From: a virus
Lineage: Duplodnaviria > Heunggongvirae > Uroviricota > Caudoviricetes
Length of the DNA: 25,444 nucleotides
IMG/VR virus record: IMGVR_UViG_2698536681_000003
Reading direction: 5' to 3' (one strand)
Position numbers: made by a program. This document shows, piece after piece, positions 22,001-25,444 of the stretch (positions are counted from its first letter, which is position 1; the number at the start of each line of letters is the position of its first letter).

Positions 22001-25000
22001 GCGAAAGCGTCGGAAACCCGTGCAGAATCCTCAAAAACGGCTGCCGCATCGTCCGCCAGTTCGGCGGCGTCATCGGCATCATCGGCGTCTGCTTCAAAAG
22101 ATGAGGCGACCAGACAGGCGTCAGCAGCGAAGGGCAGCGCCACGACGGCATCCACGAAGGCGACAGAGGCTGCTGGTAGTGCGACGGCAGCAGCTCAGAG
22201 CAAAAGTACGGCGGAATCTGCAGCAACGCGCGCTGAGACAGCGGCAAAACGGGCAGAGGATATTGCATCCGCCGTGGCGCTTGAGGATGCGAGCACGACG
22301 AAAAAGGGGATAGTACAGCTCAGTAGTGCGACTAACAGCACTTCCGAGTCACTGGCGGCAACACCAAAAGCCGTTAAGGCCGCGTATGACCTGGCTAACG
22401 GGAAATACACCGCACAGGATGCAACGACAGCACAGAAAGGGATAATCCAGCTAAGCAGCGCGACCAACAGCACGTCTGAAACGCTGGCGGCAACGCCAAA
22501 GGCAGTAAAAGCAGCCAATGACAATGCTGAGAAACGTCTGCAGAAAGATCAGAACGGTGCGGATATCCCTGGCAAAGACACCTTTACGAAAAATATTGGT
22601 GCCTGCCGTGCCTTCGGTGGGTCAGTAAGCACAACAACAGGAAACTGGACGACTGCACAGTTTATCGAGTGGCTGGATTCTCAGGGAGCATTTAACCATC
22701 CATACTGGATGTGCAAGGGTTCCTGGTCTTATGGCAATAATAAAATCATTACTGATACTGGCTGCGGTAATATTCATCTCGCCGGAGCTGTCATTGAAGT
22801 AATGGGGATAAAGTCAGCGATGACGATCCGCATTACCACTCCGACCACATCCAGCGGTGGCGGAACAACCAACGCCCAGTTTACCTATATTAATCACGGA
22901 ACAGATTATTCACCTGGCTGGCGAAGGGACTATAACTCCAGAAATAAGCCAACGGCATCAGAGATCGGGGCGCTACCGTCAGGTGGAACAGCAGTATCAT
23001 CAGTTAATCTGGCTTCAAAAGGTCGGGTAGCCGCGCTGACAGACAATACGCAGGGGGCAGCAGGTCTTGAGTTATACGAGGTGTATAACAACGGATATCC
23101 AACAGCGTATGGAAATATCATTCACCTGAAAGGGATGACAGCCGTTGGCGAAGGTGAGTTACTCATCGGCTGGAGTGGTACAAGCGGTGCTCATGCTCCG
23201 GCATTTATTCGTTCACGACGGGATACGACCGACGCAAACTGGTCGCCGTGGGCGCAGCTTTACACCTCGGCTCATCCTCCTGCAGAGTTTTATCCAGTCG
23301 GTGCACCAATCCCGTGGCCATCAGATACCGTTCCGTCTGGTTATGCCCTGATGCAGGGGCAGACTTTTGACAAATCTGCTTACCCGAAACTTGCAGCCGC
23401 TTATCCGTCAGGCGTGATCCCTGATATGCGTGGCTGGACGATTAAGGGCAAGCCCGCCAGTGGTCGTGCCGTATTGTCTCAGGAACAGGATGGCATTAAA
23501 TCGCACACCCACAGCGCCAGCGCATCCAGTACGGATTTGGGGACGAAAACCACATCGTCGTTTGATTACGGCACTAAATCCACGAATAACACCGGGGCGC
23601 ATACGCACAGTCTGAGCGGCTCTACAAGTTCAGCTGGGGCCCACCAACATAGTCAGACTGGGCCCAGAACGAATAGCGGGAGTCAACCTACTGGAATGTT
23701 TCCGGCAGGGAGTACTCAAGTTAGCGGGACTAATCAGGTTGGTATCAGTGGCTCATTAACCAGTGGCACCTCCCAATGGGTAGGTAAATCATCTTCAGAA
23801 GGAAACCATACACACTCACTGTCCGGCACAGCAGCATCTGCGGGTGCACACGCGCATACTGTCGGTATTGGTGCTCATACGCACTCTGTTGCGATTGGTT
23901 CACATGGACACACCATCACCGTTAACGCTGCTGGTAACGCGGAAAACACCGTCAAAAACATCGCATTTAACTATATTGTGAGGCTCGCATAATGGCATTC
24001 AGAATGAGTGAACAAGCACGGACCATAAAAATTTATAACCTGCTGGCCGGAACTAATGAATTTATTGGTGAAGGTGACGCATATATTCCGCCTCATACAG
24101 GTCTGCCTGCAANNNNNNNNNNNNNNNNNNNNNNNNNNNNNNNNNNNNNNNNNNNNNNNNNNNNNNNNNNNNNNNNNNNNNNNNNNNNNNNNNNNNNNNN
24201 NNNNNNNNNNNNNNNNNNNNNNNNNNNNNNNNNNNNNNNNNNNNNNNNNNNNNNNNNNNNNNNNNNNNNNNNNNNNNNNNNNNNNNNNNNNNNNNNNNNN
24301 NNNNNNNNNNNNNNNNNNNNNNNNNNNNNNNNNNNNNNNNNNNNNNNNNNNNNNNNNNNNNNNNNNNNNNNNNNNNNNNNNNNNNNNNNNNNNNNNNNNN
24401 NNNNNNNNNNNNNNNAACAAAAAACAGCCTGATGCAGGTAGCCAGTGAGCATATAGCGCCGCTTCAGGATGCTGTGGATCTGGAGATCGCAACGGAGAAA
24501 GAAACCTTGTTGCTGGAAGCTTGGAAAAAGTATCGGGTGTTGCTGAACCGTGTTGATACATCAACTGCACCGGATATTGAATGGCCAGTAGCACCTATAG
24601 GGTAAATTCGTAATGATTACCTAAATACGTTATTCTTTTGTTAAAAAAGTGATTTTGCTATAGGTAGGGAGTATGTTCTTGGATTAAGAATAAAAAATCG
24701 CCATGAAAGAGCTTCATGGCGAGTACATAAACGTACAAAATGTGATGAAAGTAGAGTGGCGTAAGCCACTATATTAAGATATGACAATAGCGAAGAAAAG
24801 TAAATAACATTTTATGGACGTTTAATTGTTAATTATAAAAACTAGAGTGCCCGATATTGTTTATCTTGCTTTAAAATAATGTACTCAAACCAAATTTTTG
24901 AGCTAAAAGCTCAAATAATATAAATGCAATAATAATGTTTAATAAGACAATTAGCTTGCTTTGTATTTTCATTTCGGAATACTGTTAAGTAACTTTGATG

Positions 25001-25444
25001 ACCCTAACAATAGATCGGAATTTTCTTAGAGTCAATGGTCACTGTTTTTGCTTGCAAAGCAAATGTTTTGGTGGTTATAAGTCGTCTTAATATAGTCACG
25101 CATGCAACTTGTTCCATGCGGAGATTAAAGATTGGAATATAACGCGAAGATGGAATTAAATTACATTTGCAATAATTAATTTATTATTACTCAATAATTA
25201 CCGATATTATTATTGTAAATTAATCATTAGAATGCAAAAAGAAATGTAACGGCAAAATAAGAGGACGATAGCTGAGAAAAAAGCGTGCTTTCCCAATCTG
25301 GGGCAAATCACGTCTGAATGACACCTGAAAACAGGTGGTAGCCTCAAGAAGGCTGGTGATGCTGCCAACTTACTGATTTAGTGTATGATGGTGTTTTTGA
25401 GGTGCTCCAGTGGCTTCTGTTTCTATCAGCTGTCCCTCCTGTTC

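Follow-up and report, generated by a model that had tools for sequence, protein, structure and literature searches.

In this study, we followed up an AT-rich stretch near one end of a viral sequence (Caudoviricetes; IMG/VR record IMGVR_UViG_2698536681_000003), of which the whole 25,444 nucleotides analysed are referred to as the window. The stretch (24606-25354) begins right after tfa, a tail-fibre assembly gene whose stop is at 24605, and runs up to the left end of an IS1 element, at 25355 (GGTGATGCTGCCAACTTACTGAT); in its left part it carries a conserved leftward unit whose 33-codon open reading frame (ORF) we relate to the Escherichia coli small membrane protein YncL. Its G+C content is 31.5%, compared with 0.50-0.55 in the tail-fibre genes, and the initial annotation, which had described it as AT-rich and free of any ORF of at least 60 amino acids, proved correct on both counts, as none was found on either strand and the longest ORF, with a TTG start, encodes 52. 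At such AT-richness this absence is unremarkable and at chance level, because an ORF of at least 60 amino acids was likewise missing from 67% of the sequences simulated for these 749 bases with a first-order Markov model. Every hairpin and small ORF listed in that annotation was present at the coordinates it gave. The leftward unit is laid out as follows.

~25035-24688, minus strand: conserved leftward unit of promoter, 33-codon ORF, 3′ non-coding block and intrinsic terminator.
25007..25035, minus strand: predicted sigma-70-type promoter, TTGACT (25035-25030), 17-nt spacer, TATTGT (25012-25007).
24871..24972, minus strand: 33-codon ORF with its stop, MKIQSKLIVLLNIIIAFILFELLAQKFGLSTLF; predicted YncL-like single-pass small membrane protein.
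24723..24780, minus strand: conserved 3′ non-coding block, just upstream of the terminator.
24688..24722, minus strand: intrinsic terminator, a stem of 10-11 bp (24722-24698) followed by U6AUUC (24697-24688); TTTTTTATTC.

The peptide begins with MKIQSK, continues through an 18-residue hydrophobic core and ends in QKFGLSTLF. Copies were gathered from annotated genomes, 50 viral contigs and 24 metagenome contigs, and they resolve into two deep alleles, 77% identical overall, together with intermediates and recombinants. Start, frame and stop are all kept in 129 of 130 full-length fetched copies, representing eight haplotypes. The two deep alleles differ at 18 of 99 bases, with only five residue changes (V9I, I15F, F17L, E21K, S30Y), which by the Nei-Gojobori method corresponds to a pN of 0.088 and a pS of 0.559 (ratio 0.16); when 18 substitutions were placed at random, five or fewer residue changes arose in 0.1% of trials (P ~0.001). 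This synonymous excess is confined to one of the six frames, that of the 33-aa ORF, the remaining five showing 9-15 residue changes among 12-15 changed codons and carrying 1-6 stops. A third allele shows four synonymous changes against one non-synonymous change, and between the deep alleles the ORF is free of insertions and deletions (indels), which both flanks carry. By this pattern of substitution, purifying selection acts on the encoded protein, and the ORF behaves like a coding gene. The initial annotation had named this hydrophobic minus-strand frame as lacking a Shine-Dalgarno sequence and had raised the possibility of a small peptide gene; the description holds in each respect, and the possibility is borne out by the selection data. 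A leaderless start was considered, and no convincing −10 or −35 element was seen at the proper distance by inspection. Within codons 20-26 we observed a perfect 8-bp palindrome, UUUGAGCU-UUU-AGCUCAAA followed by AAUUUGGUUU (24897-24915, minus strand), which was flagged as terminator-like; it went unflagged in the scan of the deep allele L007, where two changes in one arm are visible by eye.

Against the 18,950 models of NCBIfam, both alleles match one model only, NF000537, "stress response membrane protein YncL", with scores of 25.0 bits (E = 1.3e-5) for the allele of the window and 23.5 bits (E = 3.7e-5) for the second; one reversed and seven shuffled control sequences gave no NCBIfam match, and Pfam contained no match for the peptide. 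In a direct BLASTP comparison with K-12 YncL, read from the genome, 11 of 28 positions are identical in an ungapped, end-to-end alignment (E = 2e-7), and the Smith-Waterman score of 60 compares with 20.2 ± 4.1 for shuffled sequences, none of 20,000 equalling it. The positions in common are M1, S5, L10, N12, A16, L19, F20, L22, F27 and G28. On the strength of these comparisons, the peptide is a distant relative of YncL, the similarity being specific and going beyond hydrophobic composition. Both proteins are about 31-33 residues long with one transmembrane helix and a basic N-terminus, and they share an N-terminal M-x-x-x-S-[KR], an asparagine within the helix (VL[LI]N), an LF-x-L motif and a post-helix [KR]FG; a short monocistronic transcript is likewise common to both, although for the prophage peptide it is a prediction. 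They differ in that YncL (E. coli K-12 b4598) is encoded at the core patD-yncL-ortT locus, whereas the peptide sits on a lambdoid prophage cassette after tfa and occurs in only ~15% of E. coli genomes, and in that its 3′ untranslated region (UTR) and terminator are unrelated to those of yncL. YncL is a translated 31-aa inner-membrane protein that increases in minimal medium and upon heat shock, and cells that produce it undergo sublethal depolarisation, with condensation of the nucleoid (PMC12542507). YncL is also a candidate substrate of RseP, being RseP-dependent in vivo and unconfirmed with purified enzyme (PMC10470546), and in Salmonella the sigma-S-dependent yncL transcript was initially catalogued as the small RNA STnc1110 (PMC5437024). 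The likeness to small membrane toxin peptides suggested earlier for the 33-aa ORF was therefore a reasonable lead, since its relative YncL depolarises the membrane when over-produced (PMC12542507).

The signals surrounding the ORF are conserved along with it. The predicted promoter (TTGACT-17-TATTGT) lies ~27 nt upstream of the ATG, from which we infer a transcription start near 25000. In L007, the homologous TTGACT-17-TATCGT is the sole promoter-like match in 620 bp, with 3.9 expected by chance, and leader and promoter together (24973-25040) show no indels between the deep alleles. At the other end, the terminator scan returned two terminator-like sites against 0.7 expected; the intrinsic terminator converges on the end of tfa and recurs at the corresponding position in L007 and in a further allele, L008, the U-run being interrupted in both (CUUUCUUAUU). 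A minus-strand terminator with a U-run had been predicted here, together with a leftward transcript ending just past tfa; the former was confirmed, with the stem running from 24722 to 24698, and the latter fits the conserved order of candidate promoter, ORF and terminator. The G+C content of the unit (0.25-0.33) departs from that of the neighbouring phage genes (0.50-0.55), so that it shows both marks of a moron, a divergent composition and its own promoter and terminator, the latter two as predicted sites.

Comparison of the deep alleles across the unit and its surroundings gave the following profile of divergence.

24606-24697, tfa stop to terminator: 32%, with indels.
24698-24780, terminator and 58 bases upstream: 8%, no indels.
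24781-24870, ORF stop to conserved block: 29%, with 10 gap columns.
24871-24972, 33-aa ORF: 18%, no indels.
24973-25040, leader and promoter: 21%, no indels.
25041-25085, further upstream: 33%, with indels.

The best-conserved part of the whole stretch is thus non-coding: the deep alleles differ at 7 of 85 columns in 24698-24780, whereas the flanks on both sides together differ at 54 of 176 (Fisher P = 4e-5). A 24-aa ORF overlaps it on the plus strand (24703-24777), where all four changes read from the alignment are non-synonymous, so this ORF was rejected as a gene and the conservation of the block is not due to coding. Read as minus-strand RNA, the block consists of a stem-loop AGUGGC-UUAC-GCCACU (24770-24755), an 18-nt unpaired stretch CUACUUUCAUCACAUUUU and a hairpin GUAC-GUUUAU-GUAC; the predicted fold of 6-bp stem-loop, unpaired stretch, 4-bp hairpin and terminator with U6 has a z-score of −5.25. 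One-sided stem changes were seen in three pairs, all leading to G-U on the minus strand (A-C on the plus strand). The hairpin AGTGGC-GTAA-GCCACT at 24755-24770 had been described as having a GNRA loop; the hairpin is present, whereas its loop conforms to GNRA on the plus strand only, the minus strand, in the direction of the terminator, reading UUAC. Nothing in the stretch reached a gathering score in Rfam. The best matches, to MicC (22.8 of 90 bits, E = 0.96) and Esr41 (15.6 of 102 bits, E = 4.8), are at chance level and driven by the terminator, and Esr41 itself sits on SpLE1. PasB had appeared promising as its flanks carry the Rfam family IS009, and was rejected on account of its location, which is between tail genes I and J, and because the window lacks its probe sequence.

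A moron is an extra phage gene with its own promoter and terminator, and the lambda genes lom and bor are morons at the tail-fibre/att end of lambdoid prophages. We hold with moderate confidence that the left 450 bp of the stretch form an autonomous, moron-like unit for a prophage-borne, YncL-like small membrane protein, the remainder being mosaic spacer; transcription, translation, membrane location and function of the unit we infer from sequence. According to this explanation, the sigma-70-like promoter at 25035-25007 would drive a leftward mRNA of ~310 nt, independently of the late operon, composed of a leader of ~27 nt, the 33-codon ORF, a 3′ UTR of ~150 nt of which the last 85 nt are conserved and structured, and the terminator facing tfa. 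The peptide would insert in the inner membrane and, by analogy with YncL, may lower the membrane potential and so affect the stress physiology of the host or its susceptibility to phages. As for the conserved 3′ block, it may stabilise the mRNA or be released as a small RNA.

Several observations weigh against this explanation. NF000537 is an equivalog model with a curated cut-off of 35 bits, which both alleles miss, and K-12 YncL scores 68.6 bits. Neither allele has a Shine-Dalgarno sequence upstream of the ATG (...ACAGUAUUCCGAAAUG), whereas K-12 yncL has one, and one metagenomic copy of the ORF carries ATA in place of ATG. The selection test relies mainly on one pair of deep alleles and minor variants; its basis is one of few lineages, because scans of viral and metagenome contigs returned the same alleles only and a scan of species-representative genomes revealed no more distant relative. 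With regard to the 3′ block, no two-sided covariation was found among 20 stem pairs, 13 of which are invariant, and recombination is frequent here, so that the low divergence could partly reflect gene conversion. Finally, no transcript, ribosome-profiling, proteomic or phenotype data for carrier strains were found in the literature.

The conservation of the block raises the question of whether RNA alone might be its product, namely a non-coding small RNA of ~90-140 nt, Hfq-type and either 3′-derived or independent, with the ORF incidental. Such an RNA would account for a best-conserved part that is non-coding (8% compared with ~30% divergence in the flanks), a stem-loop followed by an 18-nt unpaired U/A/C-rich stretch and a U6 terminator is a typical layout, and transcription of a shorter RNA could be driven by a perfect minus-strand TATAAT (24838-24833). 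It would nevertheless leave the frame-specific synonymous excess, by which the ORF itself appears constrained, without a cause, and it has to contend with a U-run broken in two of three alleles, stem pairs in which no covariation was seen and the lack of an Rfam match. We therefore regard a small RNA in place of the peptide as unlikely; as an added function, rather than a replacement, it is compatible with the moron-like unit proposed above.

The stretch is of composite origin, and its further features are these.

24606..25183: module A, a 578-bp cassette after tfa, which holds the leftward unit.
25004..25117, minus strand: 37-aa ORF, a chance ORF that overlaps the promoter region.
25220-25324, minus strand: remnant of a 55-aa ORF, intact at 6615-6782 (minus strand) of locus L001; annotated, as gp28, in phage ev099 alone.
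25270..25354: initial 85 bp of module B, the IS1-truncated relic of a right (attR) arm from serU-site lambdoid prophages.
25355..25444, plus strand: left end of IS1, the insertion being coupled to a 550-bp loss of spacer.

Matches to the 749 bases were found in 1,343 of 5,426 complete E. coli genomes, at full length in 280 of them and always chromosomally, as well as in four lambdoid phage records (mEp332, PhiR70_1 and ev099, the last deposited twice), and most copies are at least 93% identical. Module A accompanies tfa in at least three integration contexts: it occurs at the ydfJ/Qin site, where it lies behind tfa with ~96% identity, at att-lambda and beside sitABCD, the sitABCD forms being more diverged. 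Of the 1,343 genomes with a match, a large share have module B on its own, at the right ends of other prophages. In APEC O1, ST131 and O111 module B continues through a 3′ fragment of tRNA-Ser (serU) into the zinT/yodB flank, and the window's intact relatives show collinearity with the zinT/yodB prophage ends; because of this collinearity with the serU locus and the tRNA-Ser fragment, module B is a relic of a serU-site attR arm. Just past the IS1 site (L001 6665-7000; L137-L139), the intact relatives have an attR-arm relic together with a tRNA-Ser 3′ fragment (L001 6857-6922), and the serU-collinear DNA that comes next resembles sequence from the host flank or a neighbouring island, taken up by a phage now at att-lambda. 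The segment 25040-25354 is accordingly a non-coding mosaic spacer, made up of the cassette tail and the relic of the serU-site prophage attR arm.

The small ORFs of this segment fare differently from the 33-aa ORF. The 37-aa ORF had been correctly located in the initial annotation; as a gene it was rejected, since ATG is changed to ACG, codon 6 is a stop or frameshifts occur in about half of the copies tabulated. Conservation of the small ORFs in related prophages therefore holds for the 33-aa ORF and fails for the 37-aa ORF. The 55-aa ORF, of which IS1 cut away the first 11 codons, has ATA for ATG in three of four other contexts, further defects being a frameshift within a run of A and, in O157, a premature stop, and is probably not a gene on this sequence evidence.

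Such decay recalls an explanation by which the entire stretch would be non-functional debris, made up of scars that recombination and insertion left at the end of a prophage, its apparent conservation reflecting recent common descent and hitch-hiking with tfa. The description does suit 25040-25354, and the high identity of most copies, the mosaic of module A, module B and att relic, three IS1 junctions, a lack of long ORFs that is no greater than chance and the decaying 37-aa and 55-aa ORFs are all in keeping with it. Extended to the leftward unit it appears improbable, as it does not explain the frame-specific synonymous excess, an indel-free ORF amid indel-rich flanks, the specific match to YncL, or the retention of promoter and terminator in an allele 30% diverged elsewhere.

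A type I toxin-antitoxin-like module would, by contrast, grant the peptide a role as a membrane toxin, silenced at the RNA level by the missing Shine-Dalgarno sequence together with folding or an antisense RNA, the 3′ block being regulatory or interacting with an antitoxin. The peptide is small and hydrophobic and has no Shine-Dalgarno sequence, its relative YncL depolarises the membrane when produced (PMC12542507), and the conserved 3′ region is structured (fold z-score −5.25). In the minimum-free-energy fold of the whole mRNA, the start region pairs with the 3′ UTR; this long-range pairing is missing in the centroid fold and, by inspection, is not maintained in the second allele, and was rejected. 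The only promoter-like site on the plus strand near the ORF (24781-24810) is absent from the deep-allele scan, no known antitoxin RNA family was matched in Rfam, and YncL is not classed as a toxin of a toxin-antitoxin system. We consider such a module doubtful.

The sequence beyond IS1 was obtained from intact relatives (TUM9757, mEp332, PhiR70_1 and ev099), in which tfa is followed by a spacer of ~1.5 kb, a rightward AraC-family gene, IS remnants and attR, the latter at the bioA-ybhB (att-lambda) site in TUM9757. The spacer is without a RefSeq-annotated gene, and small hypothetical ORFs are annotated in two phage records. Among 24 fetched loci reaching this point, 14 have the IS1 junction of the window and 10 are intact. 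In the IS1 allele 550 bp are replaced (L001 6750-7299), and the far end lies 206 bp upstream of the start codon of the regulator, a rightward 247-aa AraC-family protein (L001 7506-8249, outside the window) whose best NCBIfam match is YdeO (149 bits, under cut-off), with GadX next. PatE and PsrA/B are prophage regulators of this YdeO/GadX-like AraC class (PMC10877973), the likeness here being one of class. Loss of the 550 bp upstream could alter expression of the regulator.

The stretch had been proposed to be what remains, at the 3′ end, of a larger leftward cargo gene that lost its body to IS1, and the leftward 55-aa ORF is indeed truncated (remnant from 25324 to 25220; intact as ev099 gp28), but the proposal is highly improbable and contradicted by the intact loci, in which the 1.5-kb spacer has no leftward gene annotated in RefSeq, the deleted 550 bp contain no ORF above 70 aa, the 55-aa ORF has lost its start (3/4), is frameshifted or stops early elsewhere, and the gene past IS1 is rightward. 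No leftward gene was beheaded, because IS1 sits in the spacer upstream of a rightward gene; the decaying 55-aa ORF is all that was cut.

Three IS1 junctions were observed in the spacer, at 25354/25355 of the window, at ~4626/4627 of L010 and at 12587/12588 of L039. The junction of L010 (IAL7250) is 123 bp further left with an identical right side, which suggests an IS1-mediated adjacent deletion. The junction of L039, a viral contig, directly follows the terminator hairpin (equivalent to 24726/24727 of the window); this contig had been considered as alternative cargo with a shared terminator, and proved to be another IS1 insertion. The spacer looks like a hot spot for IS1.

Among 5,426 complete E. 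coli genomes, 827 (~15%) carry a 115-bp core of the unit. In the RefSeq records listed, no feature is annotated under this core, nor is the 33-aa ORF annotated in those from E. coli; among the phages, PhiR70_1 annotates the 37-aa ORF instead and ev099 the 55-aa ORF. The peptide has never been named by the NCBI pipeline because its score falls under the 35-bit cut-off. Among ~15 billion proteins, the exact peptide occurs as two gene calls, in addition to one frameshift variant, all unnamed, and a search of 1.84 billion protein representatives returned only the ORF itself and the frameshift variant. With tblastn, the phage and plasmid collections gave no match even though the DNA of mEp332 is identical, probably owing to the low-complexity filter. 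A literature search on the peptide sequence, or on YncL in connection with prophages, found nothing relevant. In K-12, tfaQ/tfaR are followed by pinQ/pinR, ydfK/ynaE and ynfT/ynaM in place of the cassette, and K-12-based small-protein surveys probably missed the peptide because that strain is without it. We also noticed that ynfT and ynaM, of 37 aa each, lie after tfa in K-12 Qin/Rac (L140 4891-5004; L141 6294-6407); the interval from tfa to att seems to be a recurrent home for small-protein cargo.

Elsewhere in the window, runs of N mask the middle of tfa (24114-24415) as well as sequence close to where J ends and to the position of lom (~20000-20450), and ORFs listed across them are artefacts of this masking. 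The sole above-threshold Rfam match in the whole window is IS009 at 24391-24565 (plus strand, 150.8 bits), which falls wholly within the tfa coding sequence; here, this "RNA family" is the conserved 3′ part of tail-fibre assembly genes.

With respect to known systems, the unit resembles the lambdoid morons lom and bor in being an extra unit beside the tail genes, with its own predicted promoter and terminator and a lower G+C content, for an envelope protein (predicted here) outside virion assembly; it differs in being much smaller, with 33 aa, and oriented against the late operon. It shares with type I toxins and depolarising peptides (Hok, TisB, ZorO; YohP) a short hydrophobic single helix, weak or absent ribosome-binding signals and a structured mRNA, whereas the peptide matches none of their families in NCBIfam or Pfam. 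Similar to the small RNAs PasA-D, Esr41 and AgvB/AsxR from prophages of pathogenic E. coli, the 3′ block is intergenic in a lambdoid prophage and combines a terminator hairpin and U-run with a conserved unpaired stretch, but it is none of them. The peptide hence adds a new, divergent and mobile member to a kind of small membrane protein already known, rather than representing a novel kind of system.

Annotation systematically overlooks small membrane proteins, and the 33-aa peptide is an instance in 827 of 5,426 genomes. The locus also calls for a correction, in that IS1 destroyed no cargo gene and instead remodelled the region upstream of a prophage regulator resembling YdeO and GadX. Apart from the peptide, the conserved 3′ block of the RNA is an element in its own right. 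More speculatively, and with little likelihood in our estimate, the ~310-nt RNA may have a dual function, encoding a YncL-like depolarising peptide (possibly a device of the lysogen for dormancy, exclusion or abortive infection) and providing a trans-acting 3′ small RNA that would regulate host mRNAs via the invariant CUACUUUCAUCA[C/U]AUUUU; if true, this would be a widespread prophage regulator, present in ~15% of E. coli and missed by K-12-centred catalogues of small proteins and small RNAs. The peptide itself would tie YncL, a stress peptide of the chromosome, to a prophage cassette that moves horizontally, and offers a natural second member of the family for work on membrane potential, persistence and phage exclusion.

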